DNA from: Escherichia phage vB_EcoM_E9.1
Length of the DNA: 64,000 nt
Strand: one strand, 5' to 3'
Sequence record: PP886230
In this document: positions 4,997 through 13,339 of the stretch, piece after piece
Position numbering within the stretch: position 1 is the first letter of the stretch
Layout of the letters: every line of letters begins with the position of its first letter
Program-made: the position numbers and the translations under genes
Notes under the pieces: model-generated
Seen by the model: only the letters and a program-made list of their open reading frames with translations
The model's database searches: none
Told to the model about the DNA's origin: nothing

Positions 4997-5845
4997 ATGG
5001 CGAATTTAAAACTACTACAAGAAGCAATTGCGGCGTTTGCAAATGGCGAACAAGATATTGCTGATAAAAAAATGCGTAAGTATTTCGTTGAGCAAGCTCA
5101 AGAAATTAACAAACAACTAGAAGAAAGCATGGAAGATGAAGACGACGATGAAGATTGTGAAGTCGAAGTTAAAGTCAAAGATGAAGAAAAGCTTGACGAA
5201 GATTTTGATGTACAACCAGACGAAGGTCTAAATGCTGAAATCGAATACACCCTTGGTGAAGAAGATGAAAGTGCAGAAGAAGAAGTTGAATTCTCTGCTG
5301 ATGCAGATGGTGACGGTGAAGACGATGTTGACGTTGAAGTGAAAGCTGATGCTGATGTTCCTTCCGAAGACCAATGGGAATCAATCCAAGATGCTTTCCG
5401 TGGCCTACAACAAATGTTTGATGAAATCGGTGACGGTGAAGTTGATCTAGATTCTGAAGAAGAAGTAGAAGATAGCGAAGAAGAAGTTGGCGTTGACGGT
5501 GACGACGAATTTGCTGATGTTGAATTCGGTGATGAAAAATTCGGTGAATCCTTCAAACTAGAAAAAGTTGCTCCAGTTGATAAGAAAGAAAAAGCTGGCA
5601 CTCATTCCAAATCTCCAGTAGCACCAGAAGCTAAATCTCCAGTAGCAGGAGCAGAGCCAGTTAAATTCGCTAAGAAAACTGACCAAGCACCACTACTAGA
5701 CCTAGATGATAAATCTGTTCTACCAAAAGATAGTCTAGATCTTGGTAAAAATGCTCGCGGTGAAATGAAAGATGTTAAAGCACCAAAAACTACTGCATCT
5801 AATTCTAAATCACCACTAAGCAAAGCACAACCTAAACTAAAATAA
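4997..5845 (+). CDS. Highly acidic prohead core / internal protein (gp68-like by position)
   Basis: Extremely Asp/Glu-rich ORF with a basic Lys/Pro/Ser-rich tail containing KSPVA repeats; GGAGGA RBS at 4987-4992 favours ATG 4997 over the track start 4985. Confidence 0.6.
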   Translation: MANLKLLQEAIAAFANGEQDIADKKMRKYFVEQAQEINKQLEESMEDEDDDEDCEVEVKVKDEEKLDEDFDVQPDEGLNAEIEYTLGEEDESAEEEVEFSADADGDGEDDVDVEVKADADVPSEDQWESIQDAFRGLQQMFDEIGDGEVDLDSEEEVEDSEEEVGVDGDDEFADVEFGDEKFGESFKLEKVAPVDKKEKAGTHSKSPVAPEAKSPVAGAEPVKFAKKTDQAPLLDLDDKSVLPKDSLDLGKNARGEMKDVKAPKTTASNSKSPLSKAQPKLK

Positions 5846-5865: not shown

Positions 5866-6489
5866 ATGAGTAGTATGATTCGTGAATGGTCTTCATTCAA
5901 TGATTCTAAAGTTGTTTTGGAACATCGTGATAATGGATTTGGTGGGCGTGACTGCTATCTTCGTGGTATTGCTATTCAAGCCGACCAACGAAATTTGAAC
6001 GAGAGAATTTACCCTTTATCTGAAATTACAAGGGCAGTAAATAACATGAACCAGCGTTTAGCTAAAGGTGAAAGCATTCTTGTTGAATGTGACCATCCAG
6101 AAACACTAACTATTAACCTAGACCGAGTAGCAGCAATGATTACTAAGGTTTGGATGGAAGGTGCTAATGGTATGGCAGAAATCAAACTACTTGATACTGC
6201 ACATGGTCAAAATATCCGTAAAATGCTAGAGGCTGGTGTAAAACTTGGTGTAAGTTCTCGCGGTTCCGGTAACGTTGATTATAATGGAATAGTTTCTGAT
6301 TTTGAAATTATCACTATTGATATTGTTGCTCAACCTAGTGCTCCAGAAGCATACCCAACAGCGGTATTTGAATCTCTGATGAGTAAGTACGGATCACCTT
6401 GTAATAGTTCTAAAAAAATCACTGAATCTAAAAAAGTAAATAATTTAGATTCTGAAATATACGATTTTTTCAAGAAATTAAAAGGTTAA
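5866..6489 (+). CDS. gp21: Prohead core protease (T4 gp21 family)
   Basis: Motif GIAIQADQRNLNERIYPLSEI matches the conserved prohead protease region (ADxxNRNGRVYP type); sits between core and scaffold genes. Confidence 0.8.
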   Translation: MSSMIREWSSFNDSKVVLEHRDNGFGGRDCYLRGIAIQADQRNLNERIYPLSEITRAVNNMNQRLAKGESILVECDHPETLTINLDRVAAMITKVWMEGANGMAEIKLLDTAHGQNIRKMLEAGVKLGVSSRGSGNVDYNGIVSDFEIITIDIVAQPSAPEAYPTAVFESLMSKYGSPCNSSKKITESKKVNNLDSEIYDFFKKLKG

Positions 6490-6555: not shown

Positions 6556-7671
6556 ATGTCTAAATTAGAAAAGCTTCTAAAAGAATCATCTCTTTCTGAT
6601 GAGGCAAAACAGCTAATTCAGGAAGCATGGAATGAAGAAAAGAATACACTAGCCGCAGAGATGCGTGAAGAAATGAAAGGCCGTTATCAGCAAGATTTGG
6701 CTGAACTAACCGAAGGTTTGAATACTATGGTTACTCAAGTCATTGCTGAAGAAATGGGTGCTGTATATGAAGAGAAAAAACGTCTCGTTGAAGATCGTGT
6801 AACTCTACGTAAAACACTAAGCAATTTCTCTGCGTTTTCAAACTCTGTTTTGGCTGAAGAAGTTAAACAAATGCGTAAAGAACGTAAGCATCTTCATGAA
6901 TGCATGGGTAAATTCGTTAATTTTTCTAACGGTATACTAGCAGAAGAGCTAAAAGAATTCCACACTGAAAAACGTCAACTAGTTGAAACTCGCGTTAAAC
7001 TACTTGCTGAAGGTTCACGTCAAATTGCTGAAGCTCGTAATAACTTCATCAAACGTACATCTGAAAGTGCTGCTAAATATATTGCAGAAACCACTCAGAA
7101 GAATCTATATGCGTTGAAACAAGATCTAGTGGAAGCAAAACAAAATATGTTTGGTCGTAAAATCTTTGAAGCATTTGCTCAAGAGTTTAATGTCAAACAA
7201 TTTAATGAAAACTCATTGCTACGTTCCCTAACTGAATCAATTAAATCTAAAGAAGATGAAATTGCTCAAGTTAAGCAAGAACTACATGAAACTGCTAATG
7301 CGGTTAAAGCTGCTAAAACCAAACTACGTATTATGGAAGATGCACAAGCACGTAATGCGATTATGTCTGAACTAGTAAAACCACTAACTGCACAGCAAAA
7401 ACAAATTATGGAATCCCTTCTAGCTACTTCACCTACTGAAAAGCTTAAAGAAGATTTCAGCAAGTACCATAAGTCAGTACTTAACGGTACTAAAGTAAAT
7501 GAATCTGCTACCACTCGTCAAGCAGTTCAGTCTTCCGCTAAGAAAACTCTTGCAGAAGGTAAAGTAATCACTGGCAACCGTCAGGCTATTGTTGAAAGCG
7601 AAGAAATGACCGCTGACGATATGGCATTCCTAAAAGAACTCGATGTTCTTTCAGGTATCAATAAAAAATAA
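6556..7671 (+). CDS. gp22: Prohead scaffold protein (gp22-like)
   Basis: 371 aa, charged, predicted coiled-coil (E/K/Q/A-rich); directly upstream of major capsid gene as in T4. Confidence 0.7.
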   Translation: MSKLEKLLKESSLSDEAKQLIQEAWNEEKNTLAAEMREEMKGRYQQDLAELTEGLNTMVTQVIAEEMGAVYEEKKRLVEDRVTLRKTLSNFSAFSNSVLAEEVKQMRKERKHLHECMGKFVNFSNGILAEELKEFHTEKRQLVETRVKLLAEGSRQIAEARNNFIKRTSESAAKYIAETTQKNLYALKQDLVEAKQNMFGRKIFEAFAQEFNVKQFNENSLLRSLTESIKSKEDEIAQVKQELHETANAVKAAKTKLRIMEDAQARNAIMSELVKPLTAQQKQIMESLLATSPTEKLKEDFSKYHKSVLNGTKVNESATTRQAVQSSAKKTLAEGKVITGNRQAIVESEEMTADDMAFLKELDVLSGINKK

Positions 7672-7762: not shown

Positions 7763-8938
7763 ATGTCACAACTACTAAATGAATCCAAATGGGTAGCAGT
7801 AAAAGAGAAACTAGTTGAAGGTCTACAGGGTACTCGTAAGTCTGTAATGGAAACTGTTCTTGATAACCATCGTAAAGTTATGCTAACTGAATCCGCAACT
7901 TCTGGTGCAACTACCGCTGGTAACATCGCTACTCTAAACAAAGTGATTCTACCAATTATGCGTCGTGTAATGCCAACCGTTATTGCTAACGAAATCATCG
8001 GTGTTCAACCAATGACTGGTCCAGTTGGTCAGATCCACACCCTACGTGTGCAATATGCTGATAACGCACCTGGTGTTATCGCTGGTGAAGAAATGCTTTC
8101 TCCATACAAAATCGCTAAATCCTACTCTGGTGATCTAAATGCGGATAATAGCAACCCACAAGCTGCTCCTACTAGCCAACTAGAAGGTACTATGGGTCGT
8201 CGCGTTAACATCCGTATTCTACGTGAAACTGTTGAAGCGAAATCTCGTCGTCTATCTGCACGTTGGACTGTTGAATCTGCACAAGATGCTCAATCCCAAC
8301 ATGGTGTTGACGTTGAAGCAGAACTAATGGCTGCAATCGCTCAAGAAGTTACCGTAGAAATCGACCAAGAGCTACTAAGCCGTCTACGTGCACTACCTGG
8401 TGCTGCTGCTGTAACTTATGACCAATCTAAAGTTACTGGTGTTGCAACCTTCGTTGGTGATGAGCACGCTGCTCTAGCAACTCTAATTAACCGTCAAGCA
8501 AACGAAGTTGCTCGTCGTACTAAGCGTGGTGCTGCAAACTGGGCTGTTGTTTCCCCAACTGCACTAACCATTCTACAATCTGCTACTACTTCTAGCTTTG
8601 CACGTACCACTGAAGGTACTTTCGAAGCACCAACTAACGTTAAGTTTGTAGGTACTCTAAACAGCACTATGCGTATTTTTGTTGATACTTATGCAAGTGA
8701 TGCAGAAGATATTCTAATTGGTTATAAAGGTAATGCAGAAACTGATGCTGGGGTGTTCTATTGCCCATACATCCCACTAATGGCTTCCGGTACTGTAATG
8801 GACCCTAACACTGGGGAACTCGTGACCACATTCCTTACCAGGTATGGTTATGTACAATTGACTGATAGTACTTCTTCTCTTGGTAACGCTGCTGACTACT
8901 ACAGCAAAATCGCTATCAAAAACGTTACTTTCATGTAA
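7763..8938 (+). CDS. gp23: Major capsid protein (T4 gp23 family)
   Basis: VIANEIIGVQPMTGPVGQIHTLRVQYA and NIRILRETVEAKSRRLSARWTVESAQD...HGVDVEAELMAAIAQEV match remembered T4 gp23 blocks (LIAFDICGVQPMNSPTGQVFALRAVYG; IDKQVIEAKSRQLKAAYSIELAQD). Confidence 0.93.
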   Translation: MSQLLNESKWVAVKEKLVEGLQGTRKSVMETVLDNHRKVMLTESATSGATTAGNIATLNKVILPIMRRVMPTVIANEIIGVQPMTGPVGQIHTLRVQYADNAPGVIAGEEMLSPYKIAKSYSGDLNADNSNPQAAPTSQLEGTMGRRVNIRILRETVEAKSRRLSARWTVESAQDAQSQHGVDVEAELMAAIAQEVTVEIDQELLSRLRALPGAAAVTYDQSKVTGVATFVGDEHAALATLINRQANEVARRTKRGAANWAVVSPTALTILQSATTSSFARTTEGTFEAPTNVKFVGTLNSTMRIFVDTYASDAEDILIGYKGNAETDAGVFYCPYIPLMASGTVMDPNTGELVTTFLTRYGYVQLTDSTSSLGNAADYYSKIAIKNVTFM

Positions 8939-8982
8939 TTGTAATAGATTTAAAAGATTTAATCAAGAAATTAAAAACAATA

Positions 8983-9010
8983 GGGACTCTTCGGAGTCCC
9001 TTTTCTTTTT
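8983..9010 (+). terminator. Rho-independent terminator after capsid gene
   Basis: gggactc-ttcg-gagtccc hairpin followed by ttttcttttt. Confidence 0.8.
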
Positions 9011-9013
9011 GTG

Positions 9014-9042
9014 TTGACACACCATCTTTTTTGTGTAATAAT
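9014..9042 (+). promoter_or_regulatory. Sigma70-type promoter (TTGACA-N16/17-TAATAAT)
   Basis: TTGACA at 9014-9019 with -10-like TAATAAT about 17 nt downstream, just after the capsid terminator. Confidence 0.6.
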
Positions 9043-9076
9043 ACGCGTACATTATAAATGAAGAAGAGGAATTTTC

Positions 9077-9997
9077 ATGAAACCAAATGAAGAAAAATTT
9101 ATTAATACAGTGAATGAAAAGTACGGTACTGGTGTGTATTTGTTTGATAAAATGGTATATATTAATGCTCATAAACAGGTTGAACTTTATTGTGTAGAAG
9201 GTGGTCATTATTTCAAAATCACTCCTATGCAAATAGTCCGACCTTCTGCAAAAGGATGTAACATTTGTCAAAAAAACACAGCATACACGACTGAAACGTT
9301 TATTGAAAAAGTTAAAACCATCCATCCAACATTGTCATTTGAGAAAACTATCTACAAAAAACAAAGTGACAGTAATGGGCGAGTCATCGTTACGTGTCAT
9401 AATGATCCGAATGATGTGCATGATTGGATTGTATCTGCCAATACTTTGTTAAGAGGTAAATCAGGGTGTGGTGTTTGTTCTGGTAAAGGCGGGAGGACAT
9501 TGGAGCAATTTGTCAAAGAAGCAAAAAAAGTACATGGTGATGATTATGATTATTCTGAATCATGCTATACTGGTAGTGAAGAATATATGGATATGAAGTG
9601 TAATAATTGCAATGAAAAATTCAAACAACAGCCCAAAGCACACCTTTCAGGACGCGGGTGTCCTAACTGTGGTAAGTATGGATACCAACCATCAAAACCT
9701 GGATATTTCTATGTACAAAAACTAACTAACAATAACAAGACGGTGTACAAATATGGGATCACTGGTGATATGAAACGCCGTGTCAACGAACAAAGCCGCA
9801 ATTCTGAGTTCGAGCATGAAGTACTTATAGAACGCTACTTTGAAGATGGCAATCAACCATTACTGTTGGAAAAGTTCATAAAGAAATACATTGAAAGTGG
9901 TGTTGTAAGTACTGAAGAGTTACCGTCAGGATTTACTGAAACATTTGATGCTAAGTATCTTGAAAGTGTTTTAGAAATTGTAAATACTTTTAAGTAA
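9077..9997 (+). CDS. Homing-endonuclease-like protein: three Cys-rich zinc-ribbon repeats plus C-terminal T5orf172 / GIY-YIG-like domain
   Basis: Three repeats each ending in a CxxC pair (CNICQ, CGVCSG, CPNCG); C-terminus GYFYVQKLTNNNKTVYKYGITGDMKRRVNEQ resembles the T5orf172 signature. Confidence 0.6.
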   Translation: MKPNEEKFINTVNEKYGTGVYLFDKMVYINAHKQVELYCVEGGHYFKITPMQIVRPSAKGCNICQKNTAYTTETFIEKVKTIHPTLSFEKTIYKKQSDSNGRVIVTCHNDPNDVHDWIVSANTLLRGKSGCGVCSGKGGRTLEQFVKEAKKVHGDDYDYSESCYTGSEEYMDMKCNNCNEKFKQQPKAHLSGRGCPNCGKYGYQPSKPGYFYVQKLTNNNKTVYKYGITGDMKRRVNEQSRNSEFEHEVLIERYFEDGNQPLLLEKFIKKYIESGVVSTEELPSGFTETFDAKYLESVLEIVNTFK

Positions 9998-10020
9998 ACA
10001 ATCTAAAGGAGTTGACACGG

Positions 10021-10371
10021 ATGTTAACTGTATACAAATTTAACAAAGAAGAGTACTTAAAGAGTCAGTACTCAAATATAGAAATAAATGTTCCTTATGG
10101 TACGTTAGTTGGATATGATGAAGCCACTGAAACATTGTATTATAATGATGATAGATTGGATTATAGTTTAGATTCTTTCATAGAAGATATACTTAATACA
10201 CATACTGAAGATATGTTGTATGAAGAATACATAGATCATTATAGAGAACGTATGTCGGTGCTGCATTCTGATGCTCCTGTACTAAACATAGCACAAGAAC
10301 CATCGGAATTTCAGCCACATAATCCTTTTCAACGTTTAATTGATATTGGTTTAAAATTCACTATTAGTTGA
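10021..10371 (+). CDS. Hypothetical acidic protein
   Basis: ORF with AAGGAG RBS 9 nt upstream of ATG 10021 (track start 10012 is a TTG); Asp/Glu/Tyr-rich. Confidence 0.6.
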   Translation: MLTVYKFNKEEYLKSQYSNIEINVPYGTLVGYDEATETLYYNDDRLDYSLDSFIEDILNTHTEDMLYEEYIDHYRERMSVLHSDAPVLNIAQEPSEFQPHNPFQRLIDIGLKFTIS

Positions 10372-10410
10372 TAGATAAATATCTCCATATTAATGATGGA
10401 GATTGAATCT

Positions 10411-10719
10411 ATGTCACAGATATGTTATGTTATAATAAACTCTGCATGGCCTGACTATGTTAAGATTGGTTTCACTTCTAAATCTGAAATGACAGAGCGT
10501 TTGAGAACGTATCAGACAGCTACCCCGTTTCGTGATTTTGAAGTTTATCATGAAGTTCACTTTGAAGACGCACGTTTAGCTGAAAAAGAGATACATAAAA
10601 GGCTTAAACAAATGAATGCAACTAGACAACCAAACACAGAGTGGTTTAAAATGTCTAAAAAGATAGCAGCAAACATCATTGATTCTGTGTGGGATGATAT
10701 GGATAACGACTTGCTATAG
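10411..10719 (+). CDS. Stand-alone T5orf172 (GIY-YIG-like) domain protein
   Basis: CYVIINSAWPDYVKIGFTSKSEMTERLRTYQTATP...EWFKM matches the T5orf172 pattern (YVL...KIGxT...R...EWF). GGAG RBS before ATG 10411; track start 10393 is an alternative. Confidence 0.65.
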   Translation: MSQICYVIINSAWPDYVKIGFTSKSEMTERLRTYQTATPFRDFEVYHEVHFEDARLAEKEIHKRLKQMNATRQPNTEWFKMSKKIAANIIDSVWDDMDNDLL

Positions 10720-10759: not shown

Positions 10760-12370
10760 ATGAGCATAAGTTTTAATAACCCATTGGATACAATGACCAG
10801 TACTGGTGCTAATGGATCTTTAGAACTAATAGTGCTTGGTGGTACACCAACTAACCCAAGACCTATTCGTTTTAATTCGTCATCAGTTATTATACCAGTA
10901 CAAACGTTACCTACTGGTGAACAAGGTGCAATGGTTTTTGATCGAAACGAATTAGTTTTGAAGTATCATAACGGTACAAGTTGGATTGCAGTATATGATA
11001 CTGATACTATTTTGGAACCAATTAGAATTTCATTAGATGAAGTAAACAGAAAATTAAATTTAAAAGTAGAAAGTGTAACATACAGTAGTAGTACTGTTCC
11101 TAGTGCAAGTATTAGTGGAACAAACTTAAACATTGTATTCCCTACTGCTTCTAGTGGTGGTTCTGGTCCAACTGGTCTTTACACTTCACTTAAACCTGGT
11201 GCTATTACACAATATTCATTGACTTCTGGTCAATCTGTTGCTAGTATACGTGAACAAATGTCAGGGCAATCGAATGGACAAAGTGGACGAAACGGTTCAC
11301 AAGGTGCTCCGTGGAAAACGTCTGACGGTTGGTGTTTTGCTGATGGTATGTGGTGGCAATGGGAGGGGGAAAATGGTACAATTACCAAACAAGTACCAAA
11401 CCTTAACCAAAACGCGTATTTAAAAGGTATAACAACATCAGGTGTAACTAAAACTGATAGTGTTATTGGTAGTAGTGGTAACATTAGTGGAACTGTATTG
11501 AGTGTTGCCCAGTTACCATCACACTCATTTAGTTTTAGTGGAACCACTGGTGCTGCTGGTCGTCATGGTCATAGTCAAGCACTAAAAGGTATGGACCGTA
11601 GTGGTCTAAATGCGTTAACTTCAAGTAATGATAACGGTATACCAACTGTAATCAATAACATTAACGAAGCACCAGACCACATTCACTCATTTAGTGGAAA
11701 CACTAACACACTTGGTGGAAACCAACCACACTATCATGGTATTAGCAACATTGATGTGGAACACTTTAACGTTGCATACCTATATAACATTGCTGAATCT
11801 AACGTCGCATTGAGTGAAAAAGTTGCAAACACTCGTTATGTACTAAAAACTGGTGATACAATGACTGGTTCATTGACTATTGCAAACAGTGCGTCAATTA
11901 AGTCAAATGATACATCATTAGTTCTATATTTCCGTAACGCAAGCGGTGGTGAGCGTGCGGCAGTGTATCATAACTCTTCAAATAATACATTGAGATTACG
12001 TTCCGGTGGAGCAGAAGTTACTGTAAACTCTTCTGGTACTTTAGCTGCTCCATCATTAACTGTTTCTAACAACTCAGCTACTGTTGGTGGTAAAAATATT
12101 GTTCGTTCAATTAACGGTACTGCTGCTGATGCTAGTGGCAACGTTACTTTGCAAATTAGTACTAATAACGTACAAAGTATTCGTTTGAGTGCACGTATTG
12201 AAACAAGTAAAATACCTGATTCTTCATGGACATATACACCAGAAGGTGCATTTATGGATGGCGTATGGATTTCTGTTAATGGTAGTTCAGGCACTCACTT
12301 AGAACGAATTAGTTATCGCTATGTTCAAATGCAAATAAATGGTAACTGGGAAACAGTACGTCAACAATAA
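10760..12370 (+). CDS. Tail fibre protein with phage tail-collar type His motifs
   Basis: Gly/Ser/Thr/Asn-rich 536 aa with SHSFSFSGTTGAAGRHGHSQ and HIHSFSGNTNTLGGNQPHYHG, reminiscent of T4 gp12/gp37-type fibre motifs. Confidence 0.8.
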   Translation: MSISFNNPLDTMTSTGANGSLELIVLGGTPTNPRPIRFNSSSVIIPVQTLPTGEQGAMVFDRNELVLKYHNGTSWIAVYDTDTILEPIRISLDEVNRKLNLKVESVTYSSSTVPSASISGTNLNIVFPTASSGGSGPTGLYTSLKPGAITQYSLTSGQSVASIREQMSGQSNGQSGRNGSQGAPWKTSDGWCFADGMWWQWEGENGTITKQVPNLNQNAYLKGITTSGVTKTDSVIGSSGNISGTVLSVAQLPSHSFSFSGTTGAAGRHGHSQALKGMDRSGLNALTSSNDNGIPTVINNINEAPDHIHSFSGNTNTLGGNQPHYHGISNIDVEHFNVAYLYNIAESNVALSEKVANTRYVLKTGDTMTGSLTIANSASIKSNDTSLVLYFRNASGGERAAVYHNSSNNTLRLRSGGAEVTVNSSGTLAAPSLTVSNNSATVGGKNIVRSINGTAADASGNVTLQISTNNVQSIRLSARIETSKIPDSSWTYTPEGAFMDGVWISVNGSSGTHLERISYRYVQMQINGNWETVRQQ

Positions 12371-12986: not shown

Positions 12987-13289
12987 ATGGCTAAATCTAA
13001 AAAAGAAGTTAAAGTTGAAATTCGTGATCTAAACGATGAACAACGTAAACGTCTCGGTGACGCACTTAACAACATTGTTGTACAACTAACTTTCATTGAT
13101 GATACCAAAGCATCCTTATCTGATTTTGTTTCTAGTGTTTCTGATGAACTTGGTATCGATGCATCTGATATCAAACAAGCTGCACAACGTATGTACAAAG
13201 GTGATTACTTTGACAAACAAAATAAACTCGATAATATCGAAACTATTCTTAGTGTTACTAATAATCTTCCACAAGCAGATGATTACTAA
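12987..13289 (+). CDS. Hypothetical protein
   Basis: ORF with GGAG RBS 9 nt upstream of ATG 12987; track start 12960 is a TTG. Confidence 0.6.
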   Translation: MAKSKKEVKVEIRDLNDEQRKRLGDALNNIVVQLTFIDDTKASLSDFVSSVSDELGIDASDIKQAAQRMYKGDYFDKQNKLDNIETILSVTNNLPQADDY

Positions 13290-13311
13290 TTAGTACTAAA
13301 ATATATTAAAT

Positions 13312-13339
13312 AGCCTCCAATGACGGAGGCTTTCTTTTT
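13312..13339 (+). terminator. Rho-independent terminator
   Basis: agcctcc-aatgac-ggaggct hairpin followed by ttcttttt. Confidence 0.8.

Follow-up and report, generated by a model that had tools for sequence, protein, structure and literature searches.

A putative T5orf172-family homing endonuclease gene at a variable site downstream from the capsid gene of an Asteriusvirus jumbo coliphage

The locus downstream of the capsid gene

We analyzed a stretch of 64,000 nucleotides (nt) from Escherichia phage vB_EcoM_E9.1 (record PP886230; hereafter the window) and examined the region directly downstream of its major capsid protein (MCP) gene, which holds three open reading frames (ORFs): ORF1, encoding a putative T5orf172-family homing endonuclease, and the smaller ORF2 and ORF3. 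The window belongs to a 121Q/PBECO4-type jumbo coliphage (genus Asteriusvirus; 97–99% nucleotide identity), and the local gene order is prohead protease (5866–6489), scaffold (6556–7671), MCP, ORF1–ORF2–ORF3, tail fibre, fibre assembly protein and DNA polymerase. The MCP gene, the tail fibre gene and all features described within or between them lie on the plus strand. The gp23-like MCP gene (7763–8938; Pfam Gp23, E 1.3e-89; phrog_138) forms the left flank of the insertion site and is followed by an intrinsic terminator (8982–9010, stem 8982–9001), for which a terminator scan gave a stem of 8 bp (five of them GC pairs), a TTCG loop and a T-run. This terminator is kept in filled and empty Asteriusvirus alleles alike, with stem-loop variants in distant relatives, and marks the left boundary of a variable, inserted segment (9010–10020) made up of a promoter, ORF1 and a short 3' junction containing the ribosome-binding site of ORF2; in the window, terminator and ORF2 are 1019 bp apart. 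An earlier note on this DNA, made from the sequence alone, had described the capsid terminator, a sigma70-type promoter, zinc-ribbon repeats in ORF1, an acidic ORF2 and ORF3, and we found each of them where it had been placed.

ORF1 (9077–9997) encodes 306 amino acids (aa), falls in phrog_681 'endonuclease' (PHROGs profile search, E 1.4e-65) and has 71 homologues. Its N-terminal two-thirds consist of three zinc-finger modules of the CapR/DUF723/DUF4379 type (9083–9676; aa 3–66, 70–136 and 140–200), which form three repeats in register of ~65 aa, the ligands of each being C/(H or C)/CxxC. Nine Cys residues (C39/C61/C64, C107/C131/C134 and C175/C195/C198) are invariant in 36 ORF1 homologues. The whole protein matched the DUF4379 treble-clef finger above the Pfam cut-off (E 8e-9); taken singly, repeat 1 (E 0.005) and repeat 3 (E 6e-5) matched the same model and repeat 2 did not. 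Among the 36 family members, DUF4379 was found in 33, DUF723 in 16, CapR in 9, T5orf172 in 12 (at E ≤ 0.01, best 5e-5) and MUG113 in 8. The finger array would be a sequence-specific DNA-binding array.

The remainder of ORF1 forms a T5orf172-like domain of GIY-YIG fold (9695–9988; aa 207–304), the putative nuclease domain. Since its Pfam T5orf172 score lies below the cut-off of 20 (17.0 bits for the whole protein, 18.8 for the isolated domain), we tested the nuclease assignment in three further ways: by the family scan just described, by structure and by a transitive link. An AlphaFold2 (AF2) model of ORF1, built on the family alignment, had a mean predicted local distance difference test score (pLDDT) of 89, a predicted template modelling score of 0.50 and a beads-on-a-string arrangement in which each finger module consists of a helix, a beta-hairpin and a CxxC helix. 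The C-terminal part (pLDDT ~83–96) was modelled with strands at 209–217, 222–229 and 246–255 and helices at 232–241, 259–271 and 292–304, a beta-beta-alpha-beta-alpha-alpha order that gives the three-stranded sheet and flanking helices of the GIY-YIG fold. As for the transitive link, the domain is 40% identical over its full length (100 aa, E 1e-22) to that of the occupant of the same site in phage SHEFM2K, which passes the Pfam T5orf172 cut-off (26 bits, profile positions 4–100 of 101). ORF1 and ORF3 also match the same part of phrog_681.

The residues expected of a GIY-YIG motif, namely a strand-1 Tyr, a strand-2 Tyr/Gly, a helix-1 Arg and a catalytic Glu, are present in both ORF1 and ORF3. 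In the ORF1 family they are well kept: Y212 in 30 of 36 members, Y224 in 29, G227 in 33, R234 and R235 in 28 each, E265 in 34 and E288 in 32. Judged by motif order, not superposition, these residues can be equated with R27 and E75 of I-TevI, and E265 of ORF1 and E64 of ORF3 would be the equivalents of Glu E180 in Odn. No match of ORF1 to the Pfam GIY-YIG model (PF01541) was obtained at E ≤ 0.1, and when the ORF1 and ORF3 alignments were used as profiles against PDB sequences, nothing meaningful was returned. The ratio of non-synonymous to synonymous substitution rates (dN/dS) was 0.05–0.33 for ORF1 overall and 0.05–0.10 for its nuclease-type domain, indicating purifying selection. The composition of ORF1 does not point to a foreign origin (35.0% GC versus 34.4% in the window), and searches of the 64-kb window with tblastn and local hidden Markov models found no further family members.

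ORF1 is preceded by a predicted sigma70-type promoter (9014–9042; TTGACA-17-AATAAT with an extended -10 TG), whose score of 11/12 was the top match in a 6-kb scan. As a class, such promoter-like sites were not enriched (24 found versus 22.4 expected from shuffled sequence). The position of this one is conserved among ORF1 alleles: equivalent TTGACA ... TATAAT(ACGC) sites lie 5' of the Sharanji, Ecwhy_1, JP4 and EcMJ alleles, and each T5orf172-type occupant has its own TTGACA...TATAAT-like promoter. At the other end, the 3' junction AAAGGAGTTGACACGG|ATG is common to all T5orf172-occupied Asteriusvirus alleles. Each end of the insert contains a copy of the 8-mer GTTGACAC, at 9013–9020 in the promoter -35 box and at 10011–10018 just 5' of the ORF2 ATG, and other alleles likewise retain TTGACA on either side; the repetition may be due to chance or be a recombination microhomology. 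The sequence TATAAATG (9053–9060), placed between the -10 box of the sigma70-like site and the ribosome-binding site of ORF1, matches 7 of 8 positions of the T4 late-promoter consensus, and the alleles of Sharanji, Ecwhy_1 and Turkey5 conserve it. Early-type and late-type signals may therefore both be present at ORF1.

Occupancy of the site and exchange of alleles

To see how the site varies, we located the capsid 3' end and the ORF2–ORF3 block separately in 34 distinct related records and subtracted the coordinates. The site was empty in seven records and filled in 27, with at least six insert size classes. The distance from terminator to ORF2 was 8–55 bp in the seven empty records (PBECO4, fEgEco12, CMSTMSU and four Salmonella SD phages); among the filled ones it was 992 bp (one record), 1017–1018 bp (eight), 1097–1104 bp (three), 1196–1218 bp (12), 1287 bp (one) and 1704–1706 bp (two). 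A spacer of 47–55 bp separates the terminator from the ORF2 ATG in PBECO4 and fEgEco12. The SD phages SD-1, SD-2, SD-6 and SD-15_S21 have 8–16 bp between terminator and ORF2 ATG and lack a ribosome-binding site (the empty site of SD-15_S21 is at 1802–1818 of locus L015). This presence/absence polymorphism, together with the profile and fold evidence, bears out the proposal of the earlier note that ORF1 is a homing-endonuclease-like insertion 3' of the capsid gene; the profile searches it had suggested likewise returned nuclease and finger families, namely phrog_681 and DUF4379 for ORF1 and T5orf172, sub-threshold in ORF1 and clear in ORF3.

The occupants are diverse. Those found in other phages range from 304 to 552 aa, and the 1196–1218 bp class encodes a four-finger relative of 365 aa that is ~63% identical to ORF1. 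The SHEFM2K occupant (332 aa) has unrelated N-terminal fingers, and that of UE-S1 and ph0011 (552 aa in UE-S1) belongs to a different family, phrog_3339 'homing endonuclease'. RaK2, SE_PL and Turkey5 carry relatives of 373–408 aa at the site, and it is empty in Erwinia phage pEa_SNUABM_47. A second clade is also polymorphic, as seen from the spacing between MCP and ORF3: Munch and fENko-Kae01, with ~1365 bp, are filled, and PHA46, with 290 bp, is empty; for Munch the filled site was also confirmed separately. The exact ORF1 sequence of the window was present in at least 24 public contigs, always at this site, and the wider ORF1 family was found at 1570 places spread over 951 phage records, a genome often having several of them. 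In SE_PL an extra ORF of 207 aa without Pfam or PHROG match (locus L008, 2445–3068) lies between the endonuclease gene and the ORF2 homologue, and the hot spot can therefore hold more than one gene.

Occupants differ among phages whose flanking sequences are nearly the same. ORF2 and ORF3 differ from the window by 0–3 nt in PBECO4, JP4, ECO103, SHEFM2K and UE-S1, in which the site holds, respectively, nothing, a 365-aa protein (63% aa identity to ORF1), a 305-aa protein (85%), the 332-aa protein and the occupant of the other family. In JP4, the capsid gene is identical to that of the window as far as 8815 and only 3 nt of ORF2/ORF3 differ, yet the two ORF1 alleles between them are 63% identical. 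Exchange has also occurred within ORF1. In the segment that encodes the third finger module (9463–9662), sliding identity to the Sharanji allele falls to 51–59% nt, compared with 87–100% in the rest of ORF1, and P0001 shares this finger 3, its allele being 92% identical and its backbone carrying another tail fibre. On this comparison the window allele is a mosaic with a swapped third finger module.

The flanks are mosaic as well. Over 7763–8685 the MCP gene shows zero differences between the window and PBECO4, SD-15, SHEFM2K and JP4. It then enters a patch of dense, mostly third-codon-position single-nucleotide polymorphisms at its 3' end (8686–8881), adjoining the mobile gene; in this patch, within the last ~200 bp of the gene, at least 4–5 haplotypes occur among phages with an identical upstream 900 bp. 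In the left flank, the window differs from PBECO4, which lacks a homing endonuclease gene (HEG), only within 8686–8881, and the patch is a probable zone of recombination or co-conversion with a boundary beside the mobile gene. On the right, ORF2 and ORF3 fall into two deep haplotypes, and their synonymous divergence (dS) from Sharanji is ~10-fold above that of the MCP gene and therefore points to block recombination. The finger swap, the capsid 3' patch and the ORF2/ORF3 haplotypes all look like signs of repeated recombination ending at this site.

A free-standing selfish gene and the alternatives

Taken together, ORF1 and its own promoter are probably a free-standing selfish nuclease gene of the T5orf172 putative homing-endonuclease class (GIY-YIG superfamily), residing at a hot spot of recombination that lies between the terminator of the capsid gene and ORF2. 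By its domains and setting, ORF1 is assigned to the putative T5orf172 HEG class of Barth, Dunham and Seed (2023), in which repeated zinc fingers are combined with T5orf172 and a capsid gene is present in 31% of neighbourhoods (PMC10448857). Like members of that class, ORF1 is free-standing, with N-terminal CapR/DUF723/DUF4379-type fingers and a C-terminal T5orf172 domain, that is, with finger repeats at one terminus and T5orf172 at the other; it has the capsid gene as neighbour, is variably present among close relatives and shows shuffling of domains and modules, and its site, like theirs, also receives other HEG classes. A comparable case is ICP1, where Gp121 is a putative T5orf172 HEG and gp122, adjacent by gene number, is the major capsid gene. 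ORF1 departs from the class in its host lineage, the Rak2-like jumbo coliphages, which are absent from the main text of PMC10448857, in being a single copy in the 64-kb window where the described family is dense, and in having no frameshifted or decayed copies among the alleles examined.

The two halves of ORF1 have characterized counterparts. The T5orf172 domain of Odn (ICP1 Gp88), the only member of the family with demonstrated DNA cleavage, cleaves DNA and loses this activity in the E180A mutant (PMC8263062); it shares the conserved Arg and Glu with ORF1, but Odn joins it to a captured RepA_N domain aimed at a satellite origin where ORF1 has zinc-finger repeats and no known connection to a satellite. 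The Cys4 module of CapR binds DNA specifically, and the PLE-encoded CapR is a repressor of the capsid operon derived from a HEG DNA-binding domain (PMC8096241). Its module is homologous to the fingers of ORF1, and the occupants of Turkey5 and SE_PL score above the cut-off of the Pfam CapR model, but CapR is a single module without a nuclease domain and is encoded by a satellite.

The earlier note had compared ORF1 with the endonuclease genes next to gene 23 in T-even phages, and this comparison holds for position but not for architecture. In T4 Seg proteins the nuclease domain is N-terminal, as in I-TevI. Like the Seg proteins and I-TevI, ORF1 would be a selfish free-standing gene near essential genes, beside a gp23-type capsid gene as segD is in T4. 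However, I-TevI has an N-terminal GIY-YIG catalytic domain (1ln0), whereas ORF1 has its fingers at aa 3–200 and its nuclease domain at the C terminus (aa 207–304); its nuclease subfamily is T5orf172, its DNA-binding modules are different and no sequence similarity is detectable. Since the domain order is reversed and there is no canonical GIY-YIG profile match, ORF1 is not a member of the Seg/I-TevI type, though it would work like these enzymes.

We infer DNA binding, cleavage, homing and early expression for ORF1. Its three finger modules would read DNA in phage genomes without this allele, the target lying probably in or near the capsid gene 3' end or in the intergenic spacer, and the C-terminal domain would cut near the bound sequence. 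Repair from a co-infecting carrier of ORF1 would then bring the gene, along with varying amounts of flanking DNA, into the genome that was cut. Target specificity would be altered when alleles exchange finger modules. ORF2 and ORF3 are residents that just happen to adjoin the hot spot.

Several observations weigh against ORF1 being such a selfish, homing gene. Besides the sub-threshold T5orf172 score of ORF1 itself, its nuclease-type domain gave no match to that of ORF3 in a profile–profile comparison (hhalign probability 0.45%). The capsid 3' haplotypes do not correspond one-to-one to occupant type: SHEFM2K has the capsid 3' haplotype of PBECO4, and UE-S1 has the 8686–8760 block of the window. 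We looked for a cleavage or immunity site through linkage of these haplotypes with occupant type and, as they are not tied one-to-one, none could be inferred. In the SD phages the empty site resembles a scar left by deletion more than a place that never had an occupant, and part of the polymorphism would therefore be loss, not gain. All ORF1 alleles examined are intact, and both domains are under purifying selection, which also fits a domesticated, host-beneficial function. Finally, homing of the ICP1 T5orf172 genes is stated as not experimentally verified (PMC10448857).

The intact alleles bring up the alternative that ORF1 is a domesticated HEG derivative that is not actively homing, acting instead as a CapR-like regulator of the neighbouring late structural genes or as an Odn-like, sequence-directed defence nuclease against satellites or competing phages. 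We consider this unlikely. CapR and Odn are precedents for such use of the same domains (PMC8096241, PMC8263062), the dN/dS of 0.05–0.33 with every allele seen intact is what a retained function would give, an ORF1-family gene sits at the site in genera as distant as those of RaK2 and Munch, and the exact window allele is widespread (≥24 contigs). Yet seven of the 34 relatives do without any occupant, and near-identical backbones carry occupants that are 63% identical or of another family. ORF1 has also kept its catalytic-type residues, whereas CapR has no nuclease domain, and its DNA-binding part is a generic HEG finger array, not a captured specificity domain like the RepA_N domain of Odn.

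Distinctly unlikely, in our view, is that an ancient gene was only passed on vertically, was deleted repeatedly and diverged fast, without endonuclease-driven mobility. The presence of the family at the site across several genera, the scar-like sites of the SD phages and the 3' junction AAAGGAGTTGACACGG|ATG shared by the T5orf172-occupied Asteriusvirus alleles would all be compatible with such descent, but divergence of the occupants is decoupled from that of the backbone, as in JP4, and the module swap is confined to 200 nt. In addition, UE-S1 and ph0011 have a different endonuclease family at the site, and the ~10-fold excess of ORF2/ORF3 dS over that of MCP in the comparison with Sharanji does not fit simple descent of the region. 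The earlier note had also raised the alternative that the three genes together are one mobile cassette or a multi-component DNA-targeting system in which two T5orf172 nucleases cooperate. In its favour, the genes are adjacent and co-oriented, and ORF1 and ORF3 both have GIY-YIG-type domains. This alternative is most improbable and is contradicted by the distribution of ORF2 and ORF3, which do not co-vary with ORF1 but are present and nearly identical with or without it, in all empty-site genomes included; ORF3 is moreover conserved (59–94%) in jumbo phages with an empty ORF1 site such as Erwinia pEa_SNUABM_47, its nuclease-type domain is only remotely related to that of ORF1, and RaK2 has homologues of ORF1 and ORF2 with an unrelated ORF in the place of ORF3.

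If ORF1 is a selfish HEG as proposed, this single intergenic site by an essential capsid gene, with seven alleles that lack an occupant, T5orf172-type occupants of at least five size classes, an unrelated endonuclease family and near-identical backbones, offers a clean natural example of HEG turnover. The 200-nt finger swap presents the zinc-finger modules as exchangeable specificity units and bears on the retargeting of natural modular nucleases. The site tolerates foreign DNA of between 8 bp and 1.7 kb that brings a promoter of its own, and is thus a plausible neutral insertion point for engineering jumbo coliphages that are candidates for therapy. ORF1 itself is of an already described type, real but ordinary, and leaves the current understanding of phage biology unchanged. 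Genes of this type in these genomes can now be renamed: most are labelled 'hypothetical protein' in public records, and one, at 204191–205087 of OQ708376.1 (phage vB_EcoM_CRJP21), is labelled 'DNA polymerase II'. The locus is not taken up in the published accounts of Sharanji and fEgEco12.

ORF2, ORF3 and neighbouring features

ORF2 (10021–10371; phrog_15724) encodes a 116-aa protein whose acidity, as described in the earlier note, was borne out by an isoelectric point of 4.4; it starts at ATG 10021, as in all annotated relatives, and not at TTG 10012. An exhaustive profile search of 1.84 billion proteins with ORF2 gave only 21 cluster representatives, all small and without informative fusions; there was no Pfam match, and the AF2 model (pLDDT 48) was unusable. 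ORF3 (10411–10719) encodes a stand-alone T5orf172/GIY-YIG domain protein of 102 aa, or 108 aa if translated from ATG 10393; the start is likely ATG 10411, as in most homologues. It matched Pfam T5orf172 (PF10544, GIY-YIG clan) over profile positions 2–98 of 101 with 50.3 bits (cut-off 20) and MUG113 with 49 bits (cut-off 22.3). Its 28 homologues (cluster representatives), from jumbo phages of Escherichia, Salmonella, Yersinia, Erwinia, Serratia and Xanthomonas, are 59–94% identical, all ~100 aa long and all with both T5orf172 and MUG113. Across these 29 sequences Y12, G26, T28, R36, Y40, E64, E66 and E83 are invariant, as is W84. Both proteins end in conserved motifs, NPFQRLIDxGxxFxI in ORF2 (10321–10368; strongly conserved) and an acidic tail, DDxxNxLL, in ORF3 (10693–10716), which look like short interaction motifs.

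Both genes were found in every Asteriusvirus relative examined, whether the ORF1 site was empty or filled, and dN/dS was 0.03–0.15 for ORF2 and 0.012–0.04 for ORF3, compared with 0.02–0.05 for the capsid gene within the genus. Being conserved, syntenic and under purifying selection, ORF2 and ORF3 are resident functional genes outside the mobile unit. They are not an obligate pair, since RaK2 has an ORF2 homologue without ORF3; at the ORF3 position it has an unrelated ORF of 244 aa with no family match (locus L011, 4288–5022). The virion proteome of phAPEC6 lists the capsid protein and none of the four downstream genes (PMC7247149), and there is thus no support for ORF2 or ORF3 as structural proteins. 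A recent duplication as the source of the T5orf172-type domains of ORF1 and ORF3 was considered and rejected: in addition to the hhalign result, pairwise BLASTP between them gave E = 6 and local alignment reached only z ~3 above shuffles. By these comparisons the two domains are only remotely related.

The nearest relatives of ORF3 outside its group are small stand-alone proteins of T5-like phages, such as the 131-aa protein of EPS7, which it resembles in kind. As a single small GIY-YIG-type domain without an attached DNA-binding domain, ORF3 is also comparable to T4 endonuclease II (DenA), UPF0213/EF2693 and the catalytic domain of SLX1, but it differs from stand-alone GIY-YIG proteins in its conserved acidic C-terminal tail, and the search for PDB sequences found no relative. 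An ATAAATA motif (often ATAAATATCT) resembling the T4 late promoter TATAAATA occurs at 5842, 6501, 7710, 10375 and 10722. These copies precede the start codons of the protease, scaffold, capsid, ORF3 and tail-fibre genes by 30–50 nt. With 16 forward copies in the window versus ~27 expected from a rough base-composition estimate, the heptamer is not over-represented. Its position suggests late expression of ORF3 from the ATAAATA(TCT) motif, unlike that of an early host-DNA-degrading enzyme. ORF3 may descend from an old homing-endonuclease gene that became domesticated. A fuller version of this idea, which we put forward tentatively and regard as doubtful, is that ORF3, far from being a dead remnant, could be a stand-alone T5orf172 nuclease that is domesticated and essential-like, has become fixed in several Rak2-like jumbo-phage genera and is expressed late with the structural genes, and whose acidic tail would recruit it to a partner for a non-homing role, the adjacent site being a permanent landing pad for incoming homing endonucleases. 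Candidate roles under the same doubtful scenario would be the processing of replication or packaging intermediates, the destruction of competing or satellite DNA and the supply of a nuclease in trans.

An intron-encoded origin of ORF1 was also rejected, as an Rfam scan around the genes for intron or other RNAs found only a sub-threshold Phe_leader match (13230–13339; 30.6 bits versus a gathering score of 55, E 0.04). This match overlaps the bidirectional terminator hairpin at 13312–13331, 5' of the DNA polymerase gene, and is most likely due to chance. To the right of the ORF2–ORF3 block lies the tail fibre gene (10760–12370; phrog_13229, E 1e-273), which is syntenic in all relatives. It shows block polymorphism (for example, at 11416–11500) among otherwise near-identical phages, and a metagenomic relative (locus L019, 4685–6400) has a different fibre of 571 aa with a Gp53-like C terminus; exchange of host-range modules therefore takes place immediately downstream of this hot spot.

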